From: Haliangiales bacterium | GTDB lineage: Bacteria > Myxococcota_A > Polyangia > Haliangiales > Haliangiaceae | Direction of reading: 5' to 3' | DNA length: 64,000 nucleotides | Assembly (NCBI GenBank): GCA_041916575.1 | Contig: JAYRZI010000002.1 | Coordinates: forward strand, 21,117-85,116 | Shown: positions 2,576-64,000 of the stretch, in pieces | Position numbering within the stretch: the first letter of the stretch is position 1 | How the letters are laid out: each line of letters begins with the position of its first letter | The notes under the pieces: generated by a model | Database searches by the model: none | The model's input: only the letters and a program-made list of their open reading frames with translations | What the model was told of the DNA's origin: nothing | Position numbers and translations under genes: made by a program

Positions 2576-3538
2576 ATGAAGCCCATGCAGTGGCTGAACT
2601 ATCACCACCTCTATTACTTCTCCATGATCGTGCAGGAGGGCGGGGTGGCTGCGGCGGCGCGCAAGCTGCGGCTCACTCACTCGACGCTCAGCGCGCAGCT
2701 GCGCGCGCTCGAAGCGCACCTCGGCGCGCCGCTTTTCGAGCGCCGCGGCAAGCGCCTGGTGCTCACCGCCTTCGGAGAAGAGGCCGCGGGCTACGCCGCA
2801 GACATCTTCCGACTCGGACGTGAACTCGGCGACGTCGCGCGCGGACGCAGCGGCTCCACTCGCCAGGCTCTGCGCGTGGGGGTGGCGCCTGGGATCCCAA
2901 AGGCCCTGGCAGCCCGCCTGCTGGGGCCCGCGCTGGACGAGCCCGGATTCGCGCTCGAGGTCCGCCACGCCGAGATCGTGCGACTGCTCGAGACGCTGGC
3001 GGCAGGAAGGCTGCACGTAGTGCTCACCAACGACGTCCCCACGCTCGCCCATGGAACGAAGCTGCACACCCACGCGCTCGGCGAGAACGAGGTACTGCTA
3101 TTCGCGAGCCGCCCCCTCGCACGGAGAGCCAAAGCGGAATACCCGCGCAGCCTGGAGAAGGTGCCGCTGCTACTGCCACCAGTCGGCGCGCCCCTACGTC
3201 GCCGGCTCGATGCCTGGCTCGCCAAGCACAAAGTGGCCGCCCGCGCCCTGGTGGAAGTCGACGACGCCGGCCTCCTGCGCGCCCTGGGCGCCGCCGGCCG
3301 CGGCGTGTTCCCCGTCCGCTCCGCGCTCCGCACCGAGATGGAAGAACTCCACGGCCTGACATTGGTCGGCCACTGCGAAGACGTACAAGAACCAACCTTC
3401 GCCGTCACCACCGAACGCCGCCTCCGACACCCCGGCGTGGCCGCCATCATCGAAGGCGCCCGAACCGCACTCGCCCCCCAAAAACACGGACCTCGCTCTC
3501 CGCCGAAAAACAAACACTCGATCTCCAAAACTAAATAG
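2576..3538 (+). CDS. LysR-family transcriptional regulator
   Basis: N-terminal HTH MKPMQWLNYHHLYYFSMIVQEGGVAAAARKLRLTHSTLSAQLRALE, followed by a LysR substrate-binding domain of typical length. Divergent from the usp gene, the usual LysR arrangement. Confidence 0.85.
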   Translation: MKPMQWLNYHHLYYFSMIVQEGGVAAAARKLRLTHSTLSAQLRALEAHLGAPLFERRGKRLVLTAFGEEAAGYAADIFRLGRELGDVARGRSGSTRQALRVGVAPGIPKALAARLLGPALDEPGFALEVRHAEIVRLLETLAAGRLHVVLTNDVPTLAHGTKLHTHALGENEVLLFASRPLARRAKAEYPRSLEKVPLLLPPVGAPLRRRLDAWLAKHKVAARALVEVDDAGLLRALGAAGRGVFPVRSALRTEMEELHGLTLVGHCEDVQEPTFAVTTERRLRHPGVAAIIEGARTALAPQKHGPRSPPKNKHSISKTK

Positions 3539-3646
3539 AAACTCAGGATCTCCGAAACCCGCAGAGGCTGCGGGCGGTCTGGAGAAGCCCGCCGCCCCAC
3601 AAGACACGCCCTGGCCCGCCACCGTCCGCCAGCCCCGCCCCCGAGC

Positions 3647-55308: not shown

Positions 55309-56262
55309 TCACCGGGGCCTGGAGCCGTCGTCGTCGCGCAGGTAGGCCTCGCGCAGAGAGGCGAACCAGCTCTCTTTCGGCGCGCGCCCGACCTGGTAGG
55401 TGTAGTAGCGGGGGTGGCCATCGGAGTGCATGCGCAGGAACTCGCCGCCGCAGATCACCTCGGCCACGCCGCGATCGGTGGCCAGCTCGAGCTCGGTCAT
55501 GGCGAGCAGCGAGCCAGGCGGCGGCCACACCGGCAGCGCTTGCAGGTTGCCGGGTGGGCGCGGCGGCGCGGCGTGCCCAAAGCCTAGCGCCGGCGCAGCC
55601 CGCACGCTCTCGACGACGAGCTCGAGCGGCTCCGCGTGCTCCGGCGGTGGCTCCTGAGGTTCGCGGTGGCTGGCGCGAGCGCGCTCGATCACGCTGCCGG
55701 CCGGGTTGGCCGGTTTGCCGGTGCTGGTGACCAGCGAGCCGCTGTAGAGAAAGCCGTCGCGGAAGCTATCCGGGGTCACCAGCGAATCGGCGGCGTAGGC
55801 GTGTCCATGGGTCAGGTCTTCGAGATCGAACAGCAGCGCGCGTCCGCTCGCCACGTAGCCCGGCGGCGAGGCGCCACCGACGCCGCAGCCCAGGAGCATC
55901 ACCAAGGTTTCGGGCCCGAGCCAGTCCTGCAGCAGCCCGTACGACTCTGGCGAGCTATCGAGTACGTCACATTCATGCGGCCGATCCGGCGATGGCCCCC
56001 AGTAGCCGCCGAGCTGCAGCCGGCCGGGCGAGCCGTGTCCGACGATCTGCACGAGGTCCGGCGGCGCCGGTAGCTGGGCCAGCGCGCGCGCGATGTCGCC
56101 GACGTAGGCCACGCGTACGAGCTGGGCCTGGTAGCCGAGCGAGTTGCCGGCGATGGCGGTCTCCATCATCGAGGCGGTGAGTGCGATGGCGGCGTTGCCA
56201 TCGCTGGCGCCCTCGCCGAGGCCAGCCGGCGGCTTGGCGAGGAAGGTGATGACGGTGGTCAT
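55309..56262 (-). CDS. DUF4347-like domain protein (317 aa). Only the 3' third of the 913-aa ORF is real.
   Basis: Starts MTTVITFLAKPP with an ATGA overlap on the upstream kinase gene. Motif LVQIVGHGSPGRLQLGG resembles the DUF4347 signature (HIVSHGSPGSLQLG). Confidence 0.5.
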   Translation of the reverse strand: MTTVITFLAKPPAGLGEGASDGNAAIALTASMMETAIAGNSLGYQAQLVRVAYVGDIARALAQLPAPPDLVQIVGHGSPGRLQLGGYWGPSPDRPHECDVLDSSPESYGLLQDWLGPETLVMLLGCGVGGASPPGYVASGRALLFDLEDLTHGHAYAADSLVTPDSFRDGFLYSGSLVTSTGKPANPAGSVIERARASHREPQEPPPEHAEPLELVVESVRAAPALGFGHAAPPRPPGNLQALPVWPPPGSLLAMTELELATDRGVAEVICGGEFLRMHSDGHPRYYTYQVGRAPKESWFASLREAYLRDDDGSRPR

Positions 56263-59200
56263 GGCAATGCTCCTCTGGCGCAGCGCGCGCCGATGGCGTA
56301 GCTGAAGTGGCGGGCCTCGCGCTCGTTGCGAAAGACGGTGGTGGCATGTTCTAGCGCGGTCGGCGAGTCGACCTGGCCGCCGCGGACGATGCGCAGCGGG
56401 TTGCGCTCGCGATCGGTCTGGCCCTCGCGCGAGATCCACTCCGAGACGTTGCCGGCCAGGTGCAGCACGCCGTAGGGGCTCCCGCCGCAAGGCAGAGAGT
56501 CCACGGGCGCCACCCATCGGTAGCCATCGGCGAGGCCCTCCTGGTTGGCGCACGGCGCTGGCTCTGGGCCCCATGGATAGAGCCGGCGCGGCGCCGGATT
56601 CGGCGCGCCGGCGAGCGACAGGCCACCGCGCGCTGCCTTGACCCATTCGTGCTCGCTGGGCAGGCGCTTGCCCAGGAAGCGGCAGAACGCCTCGGCGGTG
56701 TGCGAATCGATGGCGGTGACGGGGAAGCGCGGCGCGCCGGCGTCCTTGTGCACCGCGGTGCGCGGATAGTCGGGGACCGGGTAACCGGTGAGGCGGTGCA
56801 TGCGTGCGAACGGCGCGAACTGACCGTTGGAGATCTCGGTGCGATCGATGGCGAAGGCGGGCAGCACGACGACTTGCTCTGGTTGCTCGTACTCGGCATG
56901 CGCGGTCGGCGGCTGGCCGCGGCCGCCGTAGAGGAAGGGCCCGGCCTCGATCGTCACTTCGCCCCAGGCCGAGGCGGCGCAGGTCGGCACCGCCAGCTCG
57001 AGGCGTCGCGGTGCGCCTCGGGACGCGTAGCCGGGGAGGTCGCGTAGGCGGATCCACGAGGGTTCGCAGCGCTCGCCACGTCGACCGCGGCCGTCGAGGC
57101 GCAGAAAGGCGCTGCCGCCGGGGAGCTCGACGGGTTCGGTGCGCGTGCGCCCTCGGGTGGTGGTGGCGCCGCGCTTGACCAGCGAGGGGGGCATCTCGTC
57201 GCCGGGGCGGTGCTCGTCGTCGGGGTGCGGGGCAAACACTCGCCAGGACAGCTCGGGCAACAGCGCCGGGTCCACTGCCACCTCGTCGCCGTTTTGCGCC
57301 CACTCGAACGGCGCCAGCGCCAGCTCGACGGCGCCGAGGTTGGTGCCGGCGCGGCGCAGCTCTCGCGACTGGGCCTCGGCGGCGAGCTGCTGGCGCCGAA
57401 AGGCGGCGGCCAAGAGCACCGAGGCGGTGGTGATCGCGGCCGCCAGCGCCGCGGTCAGCGCAAGCCGGGTGCGCGCGCGACGGCGGATGGCGCGCTGGCG
57501 AGCCTCGCCCGCGGCGAGAAACGTTGCCACCTCCGGAGAGGGAGCCAGGCCCAACGCGGTGAGGCGCCGCCGCGCCGCGACCAGCTCGTCGGCGGGCCAG
57601 GTGTCCTCGGAGCGCTGGCCGCGCCGTTGCCAGCGCGCGGTGGCCTCCTCGAGCTCGTGCAAGAGCCGGCGCTCTTGCAGGCTGTCGGCGAGCCAACCGG
57701 CGAGTCGATCCCAGCGCACCAGCAAGGCCTCGTGGATGATCTCGATGCCGGCGTCGACCTCGATGGTGGTGCGCTGCACGAGCAGGCGAGCGGCGATCAG
57801 GCGGTCCAGCACGTCGCCGGCGCTCGGCACCTCGGTCTCGAGCTGGGCGCGCGGCGCGAAGCGGCGGCTGTGGCCGATCACCAAGCGCGAGAAGAGCTGC
57901 CGCGCCACGGCCTGCTGCGCGCCGGTGAGGCTGGCGAGCACGCCATCGGCGTGGCGAGCCAGCGCGCCGGCTACGCCGCCCATCTGTGCGTAGGTGGAGC
58001 GCAAGAGCAGGCGGCGCTCGACATCGCGAGCGTCCCATAGCGCGCGGCACGCGAACTGGAGCAGCGGTAGCTCGGTGGTCTGGCCGCTGCCCAGCTCGGC
58101 CAGCATGTCCTCGACGATGCTCGGCTCCTCGAAGCGGTGGCCGGTGCGGGAGAGCGGCGCGGTGATGGCCTGGCGCAGCGCCTCTTGGCCGAGCGGCTGC
58201 AGGATGTGCAGCTCGCGCACGCCGGCGAGCCTGCCGATGAAGTCATCGCGCACGGTCACCACCACACGCACGGGCTCGCTGGGATCGTCCGCGGCGCCGA
58301 GCAGCATGGCCAAGGTGGCGCGTACGTCGCTGGTCGAGGCGCCGTGCGTGAAGAGCTCTTCGAGTTGATCGACGGCCAGGAGCACCGGGCGCGAGCCGTC
58401 GGCCAGCGCGGCCAGCTTGACGGCGAGCAGCGAGGGCGCGGCGCGGAGCTGGGCGGCCAGCTCGCGCACCTGGCCCTCATCGCCGGTGCCTTGACGCTCG
58501 GCGCTGGCCGCGATCAAGCGGCGGGCCAGCGCTTCGATGGGGGCCGCGCCGGGGCGAAGCGCGATCACGCGGGTGTTGCGGGCGCGCAGCCGCGGGATCA
58601 CGCCGGCGTGCAGAAACGAGCTCTTGCCCACACCCGAGGGGCCGACGATGGGAAGCAGCGTGACCGCGCGCAGGCGCGCGCAGAACGCATCGATCTCGGC
58701 CTGCCGCCCGAAGAAGTCCAAGGCGTGGGCCTCATCGAAGGGGGCCAGGCCGCGGTACGGGCCGTCGGCCGATAGCGGTGCGTCGCGGCCATGCAGCGCA
58801 TCGTCGAGCGCCGCGCGCCAGGTCTCGGCGCTGGGGCGTCGCGCGGGGTCGCGCGCGAGCGAGGCGGAGAGCAGCTCGGCCACCCGCGCCGGCAACACGC
58901 CGGGCTCGGGCAACCGTGGCGCGTCGTCGGCGACGTGCACGCCTTCGGCGCCGAAGGGATGTGGCGCGCCGAAGAGACCGAGCAAGATGATGGCGAAGGC
59001 CCACAAGTCGGTACGGTCGGTGAGCGGCTGGCCGAGCCACTGCTCGGGCGCCATCCACGCCGGAGTGCCAGCGCGCGCCAGGCGCGCCGCAGAAAGCCGC
59101 TGCGCCAGGCCAAAATCGACGACGCGCAGCCGGCCATCGTGGCCCCAGAGCAGGTTGCTCGGCTTGAGGTCGCAGTGCAGCACGCCGGCGCGGTGCGCGT

Positions 59201-59801
59201 GCGCCAGCGCATCGGCGAGGTCGCGGCCCAGGCGCAGCGCCTCATCACGGCTCTGGGGCTGGCCGCGCTCTGCCAGCGCCGCGCCATCTACATACTCGAG
59301 CGCCAGGTAGGGCGCTCCGCGGTGCATGCCGGCATCGTAGACCTGCACGATGTTGGGGTGGTTGAGCGCGGCGAGCAGCCTGGCCTCTTCGACGATGCGC
59401 TCGCCGCCGCCGCGCTCGAGCTGATCGGGACGCACCACCTTGAGCGCGACCGAGCGACCGAGCAGCAGATCGCGCGCCAGGTAGACCTGGCCCATGCCGC
59501 CCTGGCCCAGCGAGCGCCGGATCTGGTAGCGACCCACCAGCTCGCCCACCACCAGGGCCGGCGCCGAGCCAGTAGCGCCGCCGCCCGGCGCCGAGGTCTG
59601 CGCTAGCGGCGTGACATCCGAGGGCAGCGGGGCGTCTGGAGCGGCGCTCGAGCTTTCATTCCATCGACGCTCGGTCATTCGTCGCTCGCATCCGCAACCG
59701 TACTCCACTGGAGGATCTCGCCGCAACGGATGCGCAGGGCGGCTGCCCATGGGCAGCCCAGTGTGCGCTCGGCCACGCGGCGGAGTTGCGGCTCGCGTCA
59801 C
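56259..59801 (-). CDS. Multidomain signalling protein. N-terminal Hanks Ser/Thr kinase, central P-loop NTPase (STAND-like), predicted TM helix, and C-terminal formylglycine-generating-enzyme (FGE/SUMF1)-like domain.
   Basis: Kinase: GQGGMGQVYLA, ALK, HCDLKPSNLL, DFGLA. NTPase: LPIVGPSGVGKSSFL (Walker A) with a downstream hhhhD Walker B (VLLAVDQLEELF). TM candidate LALTAALAAAITTASVLLAAAF. FGE-like: YPWGP...HLAGNVSEWISREG...RIVRGG. Confidence 0.8.
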   Translation of the reverse strand: MTRAATPPRGRAHTGLPMGSRPAHPLRRDPPVEYGCGCERRMTERRWNESSSAAPDAPLPSDVTPLAQTSAPGGGATGSAPALVVGELVGRYQIRRSLGQGGMGQVYLARDLLLGRSVALKVVRPDQLERGGGERIVEEARLLAALNHPNIVQVYDAGMHRGAPYLALEYVDGAALAERGQPQSRDEALRLGRDLADALAHAHRAGVLHCDLKPSNLLWGHDGRLRVVDFGLAQRLSAARLARAGTPAWMAPEQWLGQPLTDRTDLWAFAIILLGLFGAPHPFGAEGVHVADDAPRLPEPGVLPARVAELLSASLARDPARRPSAETWRAALDDALHGRDAPLSADGPYRGLAPFDEAHALDFFGRQAEIDAFCARLRAVTLLPIVGPSGVGKSSFLHAGVIPRLRARNTRVIALRPGAAPIEALARRLIAASAERQGTGDEGQVRELAAQLRAAPSLLAVKLAALADGSRPVLLAVDQLEELFTHGASTSDVRATLAMLLGAADDPSEPVRVVVTVRDDFIGRLAGVRELHILQPLGQEALRQAITAPLSRTGHRFEEPSIVEDMLAELGSGQTTELPLLQFACRALWDARDVERRLLLRSTYAQMGGVAGALARHADGVLASLTGAQQAVARQLFSRLVIGHSRRFAPRAQLETEVPSAGDVLDRLIAARLLVQRTTIEVDAGIEIIHEALLVRWDRLAGWLADSLQERRLLHELEEATARWQRRGQRSEDTWPADELVAARRRLTALGLAPSPEVATFLAAGEARQRAIRRRARTRLALTAALAAAITTASVLLAAAFRRQQLAAEAQSRELRRAGTNLGAVELALAPFEWAQNGDEVAVDPALLPELSWRVFAPHPDDEHRPGDEMPPSLVKRGATTTRGRTRTEPVELPGGSAFLRLDGRGRRGERCEPSWIRLRDLPGYASRGAPRRLELAVPTCAASAWGEVTIEAGPFLYGGRGQPPTAHAEYEQPEQVVVLPAFAIDRTEISNGQFAPFARMHRLTGYPVPDYPRTAVHKDAGAPRFPVTAIDSHTAEAFCRFLGKRLPSEHEWVKAARGGLSLAGAPNPAPRRLYPWGPEPAPCANQEGLADGYRWVAPVDSLPCGGSPYGVLHLAGNVSEWISREGQTDRERNPLRIVRGGQVDSPTALEHATTVFRNEREARHFSYAIGARCARGALP

Positions 59802-59876
59802 AGTCGCTCGGGCGCCGGCACGTGCATTGCTAGTGGGCAGAGGCGGCGAGCACCCCGCTCACTTCAAGGACGACCC

Positions 59877-60272
59877 ATGCCGCTTTCGCTGTCCTCTTCG
59901 GGCGCTGCGCCGCGCGCTGCGGAGACTCGCCTCGACCGCTTGCTCAAGATGGTGCCCGGCGAGGTGCTGCTGGTCTATCCGACGGTGCTCGAGCTCGGTC
60001 GGCTCTGCACCTGGCGCTATCTCGAGCCGGTGCTCGCGCTGCTCGGCGCGGGTGCAGCCGCGGCCACGCTGGCCTACGAAGCGCGCTGCAATGGCGAGCG
60101 CCTGGACTGGCGCCACGCGGCGGCGCGCGGGCTGGTGTTTCTGGCGTGGGCGCTGGTGGTGGGCCAGCCGCTGGCCGAGTTGGGGGTGGCCACGGACAAC
60201 GCGCGCGCGCTGGGCGCCGCCGCGGTCGCCTTCATGCCGGTCATCGGCTACGTGCTGCTGGCGCCCGAGTAG
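59877..60272 (+). CDS. Small hypothetical membrane protein (about 131 aa, three predicted TM helices)
   Basis: Start MPLSLSSSG chosen inside the longer ORFs. Hydrophobic segments VLALLGAGAAAATLAY, LVFLAWALVVGQPL, AVAFMPVIGYVLLA. Confidence 0.4.
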   Translation: MPLSLSSSGAAPRAAETRLDRLLKMVPGEVLLVYPTVLELGRLCTWRYLEPVLALLGAGAAAATLAYEARCNGERLDWRHAAARGLVFLAWALVVGQPLAELGVATDNARALGAAAVAFMPVIGYVLLAPE

Positions 60273-60340
60273 CGCCGGCCACGGCGCGACGGCGTGGGCC
60301 CTCCCCCCGGAGCTCGCCTATCGTTGGCCCCCCACCTGAA

Positions 60341-60625
60341 CTAGTCGCCAAGCAGCTCGGCCAGCGAGGCGGCGGTGAAGACCCGCAACGACCAGGCTTC
60401 GACTTGCTCGAGCGTGGCCGCGCGCAGGCGTTGCTCGGCGTGCGGATCGAGCTGGTTGCCGAAGCGCTGCTGCGCCACGCGCAGCGGCAGGCTCCGGCTT
60501 GGCTGCAATCCTTCCTCGCGCCCTTCCTGGCGCCCTTCCATGCGCCCTTCCATGCGCCCTTCCAGGCGTCCCTCCAGACGCCCTTCCAGGCGTCCCTCCT
60601 CGCGGAGTCGCTGTGCAGCGGTCAT
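60341..60625 (-). CDS. Free-standing RpnS-like small protein (94 aa), equivalent to the C-terminal domain of the adjacent Rpn nucleases
   Basis: MTAAQRLREEGRLEGRLEGRLEGRMEGRMEGRQEGREEGLQ...AWSLRVFTAASLAELLGD aligns to the last ~90 aa of the two Rpn proteins. Own SD, CCAAGGAGACCCTC-ATG. Starts 23 bp after the stop of the upstream Rpn gene. Confidence 0.55.
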   Translation of the reverse strand: MTAAQRLREEGRLEGRLEGRLEGRMEGRMEGRQEGREEGLQPSRSLPLRVAQQRFGNQLDPHAEQRLRAATLEQVEAWSLRVFTAASLAELLGD

Positions 60626-60648
60626 GAGGGTCTCCTTGGGCGAGCTAG

Positions 60649-61677
60649 CTAGTCAGCGAACAGCTCGGCTAGCGAGGAGGCGGTGAAGACCCGCAACGAC
60701 CAGGCTTCGACTTGCTCGAGCGAGGCCGCGCGCAGGCGCTGCTCGGCGAGGGGATCGAGCTGGTCGCCGAAGCGCTGCTGTACCACGCGCAGCAGCAGAC
60801 TACGGCTTGGCTGCAATCCTTCCTCGCGCCCTTCTTGGCGCCCTTCCTGACGCCCTTCCAGACGCCCTTCCAGGCGTCCCTCCTCGCGGAGTCGCTGTGC
60901 AGCGGTCATGATGGTCTCCTTGGTGCCGGGCCCAAGCTCGCGTTCGAGTAGCGTCTGCAGCTCATCGGGGGTGGTTCGCTCGTTGACCTCGAGAATATAC
61001 CGCAGGAGCTGGGCCAAGGCATCCAGTCCGTTGGGCGCGGCAGCCACCTCGCGCAGCACATTCATCCAGCGGCCGAGCAGTGCGATCATGTCGGAGTCGG
61101 AGCGCGCCTTCTGGAACAGCACGGCGGTCAGCTTGGCCACCGCCGTCCAGACCTTCTCGCGCAGCTCGTCCTCCGAGGCGTGCGACAGGTCGTGCAACAA
61201 GTAGGCGCACCGCACCAGATACGGTTCGAGCACCGACCGGAGCTCGTGCGGCACCTCGAGCAGGTCCTCGAACGAGCGCGCCTCCTGCCACTGTGCCGCG
61301 CCGTGGTACAGCACCATCGGCACGATCGTTGGCAGCTTGCGAGCCTTGGGATGATCTGCCCACCAACGCTCCCAGATCCGTAGCTGATATCGCAGCAAGC
61401 GGAACGCCATCGGCTCGCCGGTGGGCGGCGAACTCTGGTGCTCGAAGAGGAAGTACAGGAGCGCCTCCTGACCACCGCGCCACCGGGTGGCATACAGCAA
61501 GTCGCTGTGCTGGTGCGCCAGCGCCACATCGACGAAGCTGCCCGGGCACAATGCCAGCACGCGCCAGTCGATCGCTTCGCCAACCTCCGCCGGCACGATC
61601 GTGCGCAACATGCCGCGCGCATGCTCCGGCTGCCCGAATACGGCCTTGAACAGCGCATCATGCGGCGTCCCGTGCAT
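60649..61677 (-). CDS. Rpn-family (YhgA-like, PD-(D/E)XK) recombination-promoting nuclease / putative transposase, copy B
   Basis: N-terminus MHGTPHDALFKAVFGQPEHARGMLRTIVP matches the conserved start of RpnA-E/YhgA proteins. Internal in-frame AAGGAGACCATC-ATG (…KETIMTAAQRLREEG…) precedes the C-terminal domain. Confidence 0.8.
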   Translation of the reverse strand: MHGTPHDALFKAVFGQPEHARGMLRTIVPAEVGEAIDWRVLALCPGSFVDVALAHQHSDLLYATRWRGGQEALLYFLFEHQSSPPTGEPMAFRLLRYQLRIWERWWADHPKARKLPTIVPMVLYHGAAQWQEARSFEDLLEVPHELRSVLEPYLVRCAYLLHDLSHASEDELREKVWTAVAKLTAVLFQKARSDSDMIALLGRWMNVLREVAAAPNGLDALAQLLRYILEVNERTTPDELQTLLERELGPGTKETIMTAAQRLREEGRLEGRLEGRQEGRQEGREEGLQPSRSLLLRVVQQRFGDQLDPLAEQRLRAASLEQVEAWSLRVFTASSLAELFAD

Positions 61678-62049
61678 CGCGAAAACACCCTAATGAAGAG
61701 CGCGATCGCACGGCAAGAAAACGCGCGCGGATCTCGTGTTCAAAGAGCGTCCGAGTCGCGGACGAAAGTCCAGATGAGATCTGCTGGCGGCGATTCCGGA
61801 TCCATTCGTCGCCGAATGAACACGATGCTCCACGTCTTTCTTGCAATCGCTCCGGCGTGGGCATCCGCCCAACGAGAACGGTGGAGTCACCGATCAGGAT
61901 CGGACGAAGGGAAGCCTGCTGCAGGATGCCGCCCGCCATTGATCGCCACTGCCGCCGCCCACCGCGAGCCAGCAAGACGCTGGACGCGCACGGTTCGGCG
62001 CGCATCATCGAGGAGCCGCATCGCCAGGCGACTACGCGCTCGCGGACGG

Positions 62050-63051
62050 TTAGTCGGCGAATAGCTCGGCTAGCGAGGCGGCGGTGAGGATCCGCAACGA
62101 CCACGTTTCTAACTGCTCGAACGTGGCAGTGCGCAGGCGTTGCTCGGCGTGGGGCTCGAGCTGGTTGCCGAAACGCTGCTGTACCATGCGCAGCAGCAGC
62201 AATCGGCCCCGCTGCAACTCCTGTTCTCGCGCCTCCAGACGTCCCTCCTCGCGAAGTCGCTGTGCAGCGGTCATGATGGTCTCCTTGGTGCCTGGCCCAA
62301 GCTCGCGTTCGAGTAGCGTCTGCAGCTCATCGGGGGTGGTGTGCTCGTTGACCTCGAGAATATACCGCAGGAGCTGCGCCAAGGCATCCAGCCCGTTGGG
62401 CGCGGCGGCCACCTCGCGCAGCACGTTCATCCAGCGGCCGAGCAGCGCGATCATGTCGGAGTCGGAGCGCGCCTTCTGGAACAGCACTGCGGTCAGCTTG
62501 GCCACCGCCGTCCAGACTCTCTCTCTCAGCTCGTCCTCCGAGGCGTGCGACAGGTCGTGCAGCAAGTAGGCGCACCGCACCAGATACGACTCGAGCGCCG
62601 GCCGAAGCCCGTGCGGCACCTCGAGCAGGTCCTCGAACGAGCGCGCCTCCTGCCACTGCGCCGCGCCGTGATACAGCACCATCGGCACGATCGCCGGCAG
62701 CTTGCGAGCCTTGGGATGATCAGCCCACCAACGCTCCCAGATCCGGAGCTGATAGCGCAGCAAACGAAACGCCATCGGCTCGCCGGTGGGCGGCGAGCTC
62801 TGGTGCTCAAAGAGAAAGTACAGGAGCGCGTCCTGACCTTCCTGGCCCCCGCGCCACCGGGTGGCATACAGCAAGTCGCTGTGCTGGTGCGCCAGCGCCG
62901 CATCGACGAAGCTGCCCGGGCACAAGGTCAGCACGCGCCAGTCGATCGCCTCGCCAACCGCCGCCGGCACGATCGTGCGCAACATGCCGCGCGCATGCTC
63001 CGGCTGCCCGAACACCGCCTTGAACAGCGCATCATGCGGCGTCCCGTGCAT
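62050..63051 (-). CDS. Rpn-family (YhgA-like) recombination-promoting nuclease / putative transposase, copy C
   Basis: About 90% identical to copy B, with a shorter EGR-repeat linker. Same internal SD+ATG. Confidence 0.8.
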   Translation of the reverse strand: MHGTPHDALFKAVFGQPEHARGMLRTIVPAAVGEAIDWRVLTLCPGSFVDAALAHQHSDLLYATRWRGGQEGQDALLYFLFEHQSSPPTGEPMAFRLLRYQLRIWERWWADHPKARKLPAIVPMVLYHGAAQWQEARSFEDLLEVPHGLRPALESYLVRCAYLLHDLSHASEDELRERVWTAVAKLTAVLFQKARSDSDMIALLGRWMNVLREVAAAPNGLDALAQLLRYILEVNEHTTPDELQTLLERELGPGTKETIMTAAQRLREEGRLEAREQELQRGRLLLLRMVQQRFGNQLEPHAEQRLRTATFEQLETWSLRILTAASLAELFAD

Positions 63052-63347
63052 CGCGAAAACACCCTAATGAAGAGCGCGAGTGCACGGCAGGAAAACGCGC
63101 AGTCGAATTCGTGTTCGCCGCGCGTCCGAAGGGCGGACGAGATCTGCGAGATGCGAAGTCGGATTCATTCGTCGCGGAATGCGCACGATGCTCCACGGTG
63201 TTCTTGCAGGCCGCGCTGGCCGAGCTGCTGTAGCACCACCGACTCGAGCCCTGGCACTTCCTCATGCACACGTGCGAGTGAGCACACCGGCTCAGCACGG
63301 CCAGTGGCCTCGGAGCACGACGCTCTGCAAGGTATCGGCGACCCAGC

Positions 63348-63534
63348 CATGGACCTTTCGAGGCTCGCACCAGACCTGCCCCTCATCGGCTGTGCTGATC
63401 GGGACCCAGACGATCGCGTCGATGTCACGTTGAACCGCTGGATGCTATCGCTCAGCCCCGAGCAACGCCTGGACGTGCTGCAGTCGTTCCTCGACAGCAT
63501 TGCTGAGCTCACGGGTGAACAGGCCTCAGGCTAA
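63348..63534 (+). CDS. Small hypothetical protein (61 aa), possibly a partner of the downstream nucleotidyltransferase-like gene
   Basis: ORF MDLSRLAPDLPLIGCADRDPDDRVDVTLNRWMLSLSPEQRLDVLQSFLDSIAELTGEQASG ends 10 bp before the next ATG. Weak evidence; it could be non-coding. Confidence 0.25.
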
Positions 63535-63544
63535 CTTCGAGGAG

Positions 63545-64000
63545 ATGCTGACGGCCCTCGCGCAGCACGAGGTGTCGTTCATCGTCGTCGGGGGTGTGGC
63601 CGCGGTGCTCGCTGGGGCTCCGATCTCCACGTTCGACCTGGACATCGTGCACGAGAGGAGCCCCGCGAACGTGGCGCGGCTTCTGTCGGCGCTGACGCAG
63701 ATGGAAGCTCGTTACCGCGACCCAGGGGTGTCGGACCCGGAGAACCCCCAGGCCGCGCGCTCCAACGGGCGAGTCATCCCGACGCTGCAAGCACTACTCG
63801 GCGAGGGGCATCACCTGCTGATGACTCGGTTTGGCCCCCTCGATGTGCTCGGTAAGGTTGGTGTAGGTCCGGGCGCCGCTGGCCGTGGATACGAAGAGCT
63901 GGTGTCGGAGAGTTCTCTGCTGGCCGTGGGCTCGCTGCGGGTCCGGGTGCTCGGCTTGCGAGCCTTGATCCGGAGCAAGCAGGATGCTGGCCGGGACAAG
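63545..64000 (+). CDS. Nucleotidyltransferase-fold-like hypothetical protein, 5' portion (runs off the window end)
   Basis: MLTALAQHEVSFIVVGGVAAVLAGAPISTFDLDIVHERSPANVARLL... hG[GS]...D.D pattern of minimal nucleotidyltransferases. Open to the end of the window. Confidence 0.4.
   Translation, partial: MLTALAQHEVSFIVVGGVAAVLAGAPISTFDLDIVHERSPANVARLLSALTQMEARYRDPGVSDPENPQAARSNGRVIPTLQALLGEGHHLLMTRFGPLDVLGKVGVGPGAAGRGYEELVSESSLLAVGSLRVRVLGLRALIRSKQDAGRDK

Follow-up and report, generated by a model that had tools for sequence, protein, structure and literature searches.

Tandem rpn genes with internal rpnS frames and a stand-alone rpnSs-like gene in a Haliangiales genome

Introduction

In the Rpn phage-defence systems of Escherichia coli (RpnA-E), the full-length product, RpnL, is toxic and is neutralised by RpnS, a small protein whose translation begins at an internal start codon (Zhong et al. 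2023, PNAS, PMC10400941). Four-residue (dodecamer) repeats set the specificity of RpnL and RpnS for one another; the number of repeats differs from strain to strain, and neutralisation requires matching numbers (PMC10400941), and a commentary adds that this variation prevents in-trans inhibition between paralogs (PMC10400984). Here we describe a locus with the same layout at the right end of a 64,000-nt stretch of DNA (hereafter the window) from a Haliangiales bacterium (assembly GCA_041916575.1, contig JAYRZI010000002.1, positions 21,117 to 85,116). Within 2.7 kb of the minus strand it holds two rpn paralogs, copies A and B, and a third, 94-codon gene directly downstream of copy B, which together most probably represent two tandem RpnLS gene-within-gene toxin-antitoxin modules and a stand-alone rpnSs gene, with a history of repeat-register change and duplication.

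Several further features of the described systems bear on this locus. Mutation of D11, D63, E82, Q84 or R94 of RpnA abolishes or alters its in vivo phenotypes (Kingston et al. 2017, PMC5350276), while K240, E241 and M244 are the residues that were mutated to abolish RpnAS (Zhong et al. 2023, PMC10400941), a small helical domain whose structure is available (PDB 7TH0). Separate rpnSs genes, annotated as DUF4351, are found downstream of rpn genes; ypaA of E. coli is rpnESs, its product YpaA/RpnESs is made in E. coli, and rpnCSs and rpnESs are of independent origin (PMC10400941). Such genes can also be lost by fusion with the N-terminal domain of an rpn gene (PMC10400941). Arrays of rpn genes arise by tandem direct duplication, with transposition argued against, and rpn copy number varies between strains (PMC10400941); in Bacillus thuringiensis, where the genes form tandem arrays, a genome may carry as many as 26 copies (Zhong et al., SI Fig. 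S1B). We found no later literature that changes the picture drawn by Zhong et al.

Results

Two tandem rpn paralogs

The three open reading frames (ORFs) lie in a window with a GC content of 69%. Copy A (62050-63051, 333 amino acids) and copy B (60649-61677, 342 amino acids) each encode a putative RpnL toxin and are 92% identical at the protein level, while a DNA alignment of the two ORFs together with ~250 nt of upstream sequence has a mean column identity of 91%. Recognisable DNA similarity extends ~160 nt upstream of the start codons. An earlier reading made from the DNA letters and their translations (the original prediction) had proposed tandem Rpn paralogs of about 90% identity with similar upstream regions, and both parts of this description hold.

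Both proteins match the PF04754 profile (Transposase_31, YhgA-like) far above the Pfam cut-off of 21, copy A with E=6.8e-48 and 163.4 bits and copy B with E=2.3e-48 and 164.9 bits, and in both the match covers profile positions 1-198 of 203. For TIGR01784, with a cut-off of 52.1 bits, copy B lies just above (53.7) and copy A just below (48.5). E. coli K-12 rpnA was also fetched and aligned with copies A and B and four relatives. In this alignment D11, D63, E82, Q84 and R94 of RpnA, residues required for RpnA activity, all fall in invariant columns; the window proteins are ~31% identical to RpnA. From these profile matches and conserved residues, copies A and B belong to the Rpn/YhgA-like PD-(D/E)XK nuclease family (PF04754, COG5464). 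No further rpn homologs were found in the window, and a PDB sequence search with copy B returned a single chance match (E=0.5).

Direct duplication that includes upstream sequence and leaves no target-site duplications is shared with the described tandem rpn arrays, as is a difference between paralogs that is concentrated in the C-terminal repeat region. Unlike the arrays of B. thuringiensis, the window holds only two full copies.

Internal start sites

Each paralog contains an in-frame AAGGAG-ACCATC-ATG near its 3' end. In copy A, the Shine-Dalgarno (SD) sequence (62281-62286) stands 6 nt before an ATG at 62274-62272 that opens a 74-residue frame, rpnS-A (62050-62274), and in copy B the SD sequence (60916-60921) precedes an ATG at 60909-60907 that opens an 86-residue frame, rpnS-B (60649-60909). 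Both are putative intragenic antitoxins. The 94-codon gene (60341-60625) begins in the same way, with AAGGAG-ACCCTC-ATG and its SD sequence at 60632-60637. AAGGAG-N6-ATG thus precedes MTAAQRLREEGR in copy A, in copy B and in the stand-alone gene, and the three products have the common start MTAAQRLREEGRLE and the same terminal domain. The internal SD and ATG of both rpn genes, and the third gene behind its own AAGGAG, had all been predicted; the distance from the internal Met to the stop, given earlier as about 90 codons, is in fact 74 codons in copy A and 86 in copy B.

In the alignment described above, K240, E241 and M244 of RpnA are likewise invariant columns: the Lys-Glu codons of the window genes form the SD sequence, and their internal Met aligns with M244. 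The in-frame internal ribosome-binding site and start lie at the very position that was mutated to abolish RpnAS. The motif and its spacing are identical in E. coli rpnA and ypaA, and the beginning of RpnS, MT(A/I)A(Q/E)RLR(E/Q)EG, is also shared with the E. coli proteins. Among relatives with 35-78% protein identity, an SD core (AAGGAG, AAGGA, AGGAG, GGAG or GAGGA) precedes the internal Met at 18 of 18 sites, and lies at -12 to -7 at all of them except in contig L023. The residues encoded at these sites change between KE, KD, QE and GE while the SD core is kept, a pattern that points to selection acting on the motif as DNA sequence. By analogy with the E. coli work, we infer that RpnS would be translated from both internal ATGs.

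A scan for sigma-70 consensus promoters found none, a result that is uninformative in a region of 69% GC, and a terminator scan, equally uninformative in a genome of this composition, returned terminator-like sites inside coding sequence only.

Four-residue repeats in the C-terminal module

Counted from the Met, the frame of copy A codes for 74 residues, that of copy B for 86 and the stand-alone gene for 94, and the differences are multiples of four residues only. They reflect a tandem repeat that had been described as a 15-bp unit, for which Tandem Repeats Finder instead gives a period of 12 bp, or four residues (EGRx). The tract spans 60818-60871 in copy B (4.5 copies, 88% matches) and 60510-60597 in the stand-alone gene (7.2 copies, 85% matches), while the linker of rpnS-A is limited to EGRL EARE QELQ (~62212-62247). 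Alignment of the three C-terminal domains confirmed the predicted variation in unit number, with three units in copy A, six in copy B and eight in the stand-alone gene, whose tract is the longest.

In RpnS the first repeat starts at residue 10, inside the reported range of 8-20 (Zhong et al., PMC10400941), and each unit combines one hydrophobic residue with charged residues or glycine, as published for RpnS. Variable-number four-residue repeats from about 10 residues after the Met are a feature of E. coli RpnA-E as well. In an AlphaFold2 model of the stand-alone protein (predicted local distance difference test score, pLDDT, 81), a single long helix (residues 3-39) spans the repeats and is followed by four short helices; fold searches with this model were uninformative. 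Matches of the linker to Yae1_N and FliH were taken as low-complexity artefacts of the EGRx repeat.

The C-terminal module also evolves faster than the nuclease domain, as it does in the E. coli proteins. Between copies A and B, the nuclease domain has 96% amino acid identity and a ratio of non-synonymous to synonymous substitution rates (dN/dS) of 0.11, compared to 76% and 0.38 for the C-terminal module, and nucleotide identity drops from ~95% to ~82% directly after the repeat tract. In contrast with the RpnS of E. coli RpnA, with its 49 residues, the window RpnS proteins are longer (74-94 residues) and appear to be of the DUF4351 type, and their host is a Kofleriaceae-like myxobacterium of 69% GC.

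The stand-alone gene

The stand-alone gene starts 23 nt past the stop codon of copy B. It duplicates the C-terminal module of copy B, and its product has 90% amino acid identity to rpnS-B and 76% to rpnS-A. A comparison of the junctions places the upstream limit of its homology to the internal site only ~13 nt before the ATG. Separate from the rpn gene, downstream of it and equipped with start signals of its own, it shares the layout of ypaA-like rpnSs genes. Like ypaA downstream of rpnE, and rpnCSs downstream of rpnC, it is a small gene on the same strand, directly downstream, that has its own AAGGAG-N6-ATG and derives from the tail of the upstream gene; like ypaA, it exceeds the internal copy by a whole number of units (one in ypaA, two here relative to copy B). 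Unlike these E. coli genes, it stands behind the second of two arrayed rpn genes, has a duplication junction only ~13 nt before its ATG and carries the longest tract of the three modules.

The closest sequences to the locus come from metagenome-assembled genomes (MAGs) of Kofleriaceae (Myxococcota) and from metagenomes. Synteny with the window is seen in Logan contigs L001-L005, which share its kinase-nSTAND1-FGE-sulfatase gene and its small membrane protein; their orthologous stand-alone gene encodes 74 residues and has three units (257-481 in L001). The contigs derive from five different sequencing runs, and all start at the same base, CAAGGAGACCATCATG, in the part of an rpn gene that holds the internal start; this common start suggests an assembly break caused by repeated upstream nuclease-coding sequence in that genome. 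Between the window and L001 the stand-alone frame remains intact despite 8% nucleotide divergence and a length change of five units, with 8 synonymous and 9 non-synonymous changes (dS 0.153, dN 0.057, dN/dS 0.37; binomial P=0.05 against neutrality). The G+C content at third codon positions (GC3) of the stand-alone gene is 0.80, typical of coding frames here.

Stand-alone copies also occur downstream of rpnL in L006, L007 and L020. In L006, a Kofleriaceae MAG, the copy has one unit more than its rpnL; in L020 it has fewer units and its own GAGGAG; and in L007 the unit number equals that of rpnL, with one R-to-P change in the helix. Two further contigs preserve remnants of such modules: L023 contains a second copy of the module that is frame-broken and split over two frames (3466-3616), and in L009 a ~54-nt remnant (~3451-3505) duplicates the ELLERELGSSAKETLMT region of the internal start after the rpnL stop and gives way to unrelated sequence. 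The duplication junctions differ between lineages, indicating that stand-alone copies arose independently, as published for rpnCSs and rpnESs.

Unit number varies across these relatives as the original prediction had asked to be compared, with three units in both modules of L001 and other numbers in L006-L009. In E. coli K-12 (L011, 3905-5002), YpaA corresponds to the internal RpnES of the adjacent rpnE plus exactly one unit, KLEG, and ypaA is annotated as a pseudogene in RefSeq. Altogether, the stand-alone and adjacent internal modules are out of register in four of the six pairs examined (the window, L006, L020 and E. coli rpnE/ypaA), and equal in unit number only in L007 and L001.

Function and origin of the array

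By homology to an experimentally characterised system, the features above favour the proposal, already made in the original prediction, that copies A and B are two toxin/intragenic-antitoxin genes; its account of the literature on toxic Rpn proteins and RpnS antitoxins from internal starts is correct, and each feature of the locus has a counterpart there (PMC10400941). Toxicity, neutralisation, register specificity and a role in defence would all be expected here by extension from the E. coli work. Under this model, each rpn gene would be read twice. The first ATG would yield RpnL, a PD-(D/E)XK DNA endonuclease that is toxic when alone, and the internal AAGGAG-N6-ATG would yield RpnS, the C-terminal helical domain on its own, which may pair with the identical domain of RpnL via the long first helix and keep the nuclease inactive until a trigger, probably phage infection, frees RpnL from RpnS. 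The (EGRx)n tract would lengthen the first helix, with its unit number (3, 6 or 8) acting as a register that limits each RpnS to its own RpnL, and such register differences may insulate copies A and B from each other. The array itself probably originated in tandem duplications at the site, one of the C-terminal module, as an earlier or a separate event, and then one of the whole gene with ~160 nt of its 5' region, with the 12-bp repeats expanding and contracting by slippage or unequal exchange.

Several observations weigh against this model, or against parts of it. Copy A has a private 9-nt tandem duplication (~62833-62841, residues 72-74; GQE-GQD) that is found neither in copy B nor in any relative, and the resulting 3-residue insertion adjoins the catalytic strand, FEHQ, which bears the catalytic E-x-Q. 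The DUF4351 profile (PF14261) scores 19.2 bits (A) and 21.4 bits (B) at the C-terminus, under its cut-off of 25, and finds no match in the 94-residue protein; most database homologs of that protein do carry PF14261, and P0004, with 62% identity, scores 25.7. PADLOC 2023 returned no match for the Rpn proteins, and among the scanned neighbours the kinase-nSTAND1-FGE protein is the only one with a defence-linked domain, three others being without a family match. In the L001 ortholog of the stand-alone gene, the SD sequence is lost (CCCCAAAGCCCCTC-ATG). Finally, the eight units of the stand-alone protein match neither the six of RpnL-B nor the three of RpnL-A. In E. coli RpnC, a difference of a single unit was enough to abolish neutralisation (Zhong et al., PMC10400941), and the published matching rule predicts that the stand-alone protein should neutralise neither neighbour. 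The earlier suggestion of an extra stand-alone antitoxin is thus upheld by homology as far as an RpnSs-like gene is concerned, while a role as antitoxin for copies A and B is doubtful.

This mismatch, together with the lost SD sequence of L001, is also what might be expected if the 94-codon gene were a non-functional by-product of duplication, a decaying 3' fragment of rpn that happens to be open still, in which case only the full-length genes would matter. Stand-alone copies are visibly born and lost in the relatives, as the broken copy of L023, the remnant of L009 and the R-to-P change of L007 illustrate, and ypaA is itself listed as a pseudogene. The latter is nevertheless produced in E. 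coli, and the window gene has a perfect AAGGAG-N6-ATG, a coding-like GC3 and a frame that has stayed open between the window and L001 with a dN/dS below that expected under neutrality. We therefore consider decay unlikely, though it is the best placed of the alternatives.

Somewhat less likely still is that the stand-alone gene, rather than being an antitoxin of its neighbours, serves as a silent or semi-silent donor cassette. Exchange with the 3' end of rpnL, whether through gene conversion or through a deletion that fuses the nuclease domain to the cassette, would then switch the register and with it the specificity of the toxin-antitoxin pair. The register mismatches in the window (+2 relative to copy B), L006 (+1), L020 (fewer) and E. 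coli rpnE/ypaA (+1) would fit such a role, as would the rpnSs losses through fusion noted by Zhong et al. (PMC10400941). Mosaic patterns are seen in the modules too: copy B of the window resembles the stand-alone gene at all 14 informative linker sites and shows a mixture beyond them, and in L001 the first module resembles A within the linker and B beyond it, with best break points that reach Fisher P=5e-4 and 1e-3 uncorrected, or ~0.015 and 0.03 when corrected for the break points tried. This mosaicism suggests that linkers have been exchanged between modules by recombination and, together with the register mismatch, leaves room for a cassette-like role. However, the sample is small, at six pairs, mosaicism attests to past exchange rather than to a selected switching function, a silent cassette would have no need of a strong SD sequence of its own, and neither recombination sites nor a recombinase are evident. 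Were the cassette reading true, toxin-antitoxin specificity would be switched in a simple way by recombination, which the Rpn nuclease might itself promote.

That the genes are insertion-sequence transposases, and the array a product of repeated insertion, is highly improbable despite their Pfam and NCBIfam names ('Transposase_31', 'ISNCY family transposase') and the strain-to-strain variation in rpn copy number (PMC10400941): scores for the NCBIfam ISNCY and RpnA equivalog models (86-97) are far under the cut-off of 583, no terminal inverted repeats or target duplications flank copy A or B, the absence of terminal repeats having led us to reject this reading, the 204-nt A-B spacer matches neither flank, the copies are direct, tandem and share their 5' region as duplication predicts, and Zhong et al. 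argue against transposition (PMC10400941). This comparison of the spacer with the flanks, made to define the duplication unit, found no homology above shuffled controls.

We accordingly retain the model of two RpnLS modules and a stand-alone rpnSs gene, every element of which has already been described by Zhong et al. 2023, so that the locus is real but ordinary, a myxobacterial example of a known system. Its value lies in being a clean one, with two paralogs, internal starts, four-residue repeats and a stand-alone gene side by side. The 3-, 6- and 8-unit modules would form a natural test set for the repeat-register rule outside E. coli, and the locus is suited to asking how a stand-alone RpnSs acts where its register agrees with that of no neighbour. 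In genome annotation, RpnS-like is the name to use for the 94-codon gene and the internal products, and the rpn genes should not be named transposases.

Upstream regions

The 5' sequence common to both paralogs spans 63052-63208 before copy A and 61678-61845 before copy B (minus strand). A comparison of six upstream regions, those of copies A and B and of four Kofleriaceae relatives, identified two elements that are conserved in all six. The first is an inverted repeat, GTCCG-N5-CGGAC, located 72-87 nt before the rpnL start codons (63124-63138 in copy A and 61749-61763 in copy B, minus strand) with CAGATCTC ahead of it, and the second is a TAGGGTG motif ~10-17 nt upstream of the ATG. The inverted repeat could be an operator or a hairpin in the 5' untranslated region; an Rfam search of 59800-64000, with E up to 0.1, found no match there or elsewhere in that interval.

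A different palindrome, CATTCG-N4-CGAATG, had been reported upstream of both genes. It is perfect before copy B (61803-61818) and has one mismatch before copy A (63166-63181). As it is imperfect in copy A and absent from the four relatives (76-78% protein identity), we rejected it as a conserved regulatory site, and by a rough estimate 6-nt palindrome arms are unremarkable by chance. A 20-nt inverted match (95%) between the 3' end of the stand-alone gene (60351-60370) and sequence upstream of copy A (63210-63229) was similarly not accepted as a gene remnant; it consists of common ALAELL codons on each strand and is probably a matter of codon usage.

Neighbouring genes

Downstream of the array on the same strand, 56259-59801 encodes the 1180-amino acid protein that is syntenic in L001, with Ser/Thr kinase, nSTAND1 NTPase and FGE-sulfatase domains. 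Its kinase domain matches the PADLOC models PD-T4-6 and mad6, which may be generic kinase similarity. Upstream of copy A, two ORFs lie on the plus strand, one of 61 amino acids (63349-63531) and one of at least 152 amino acids that runs off the window (63545-64000). Neither has a Pfam, NCBIfam or PADLOC match, and the second has a GAGGAG before its ATG.

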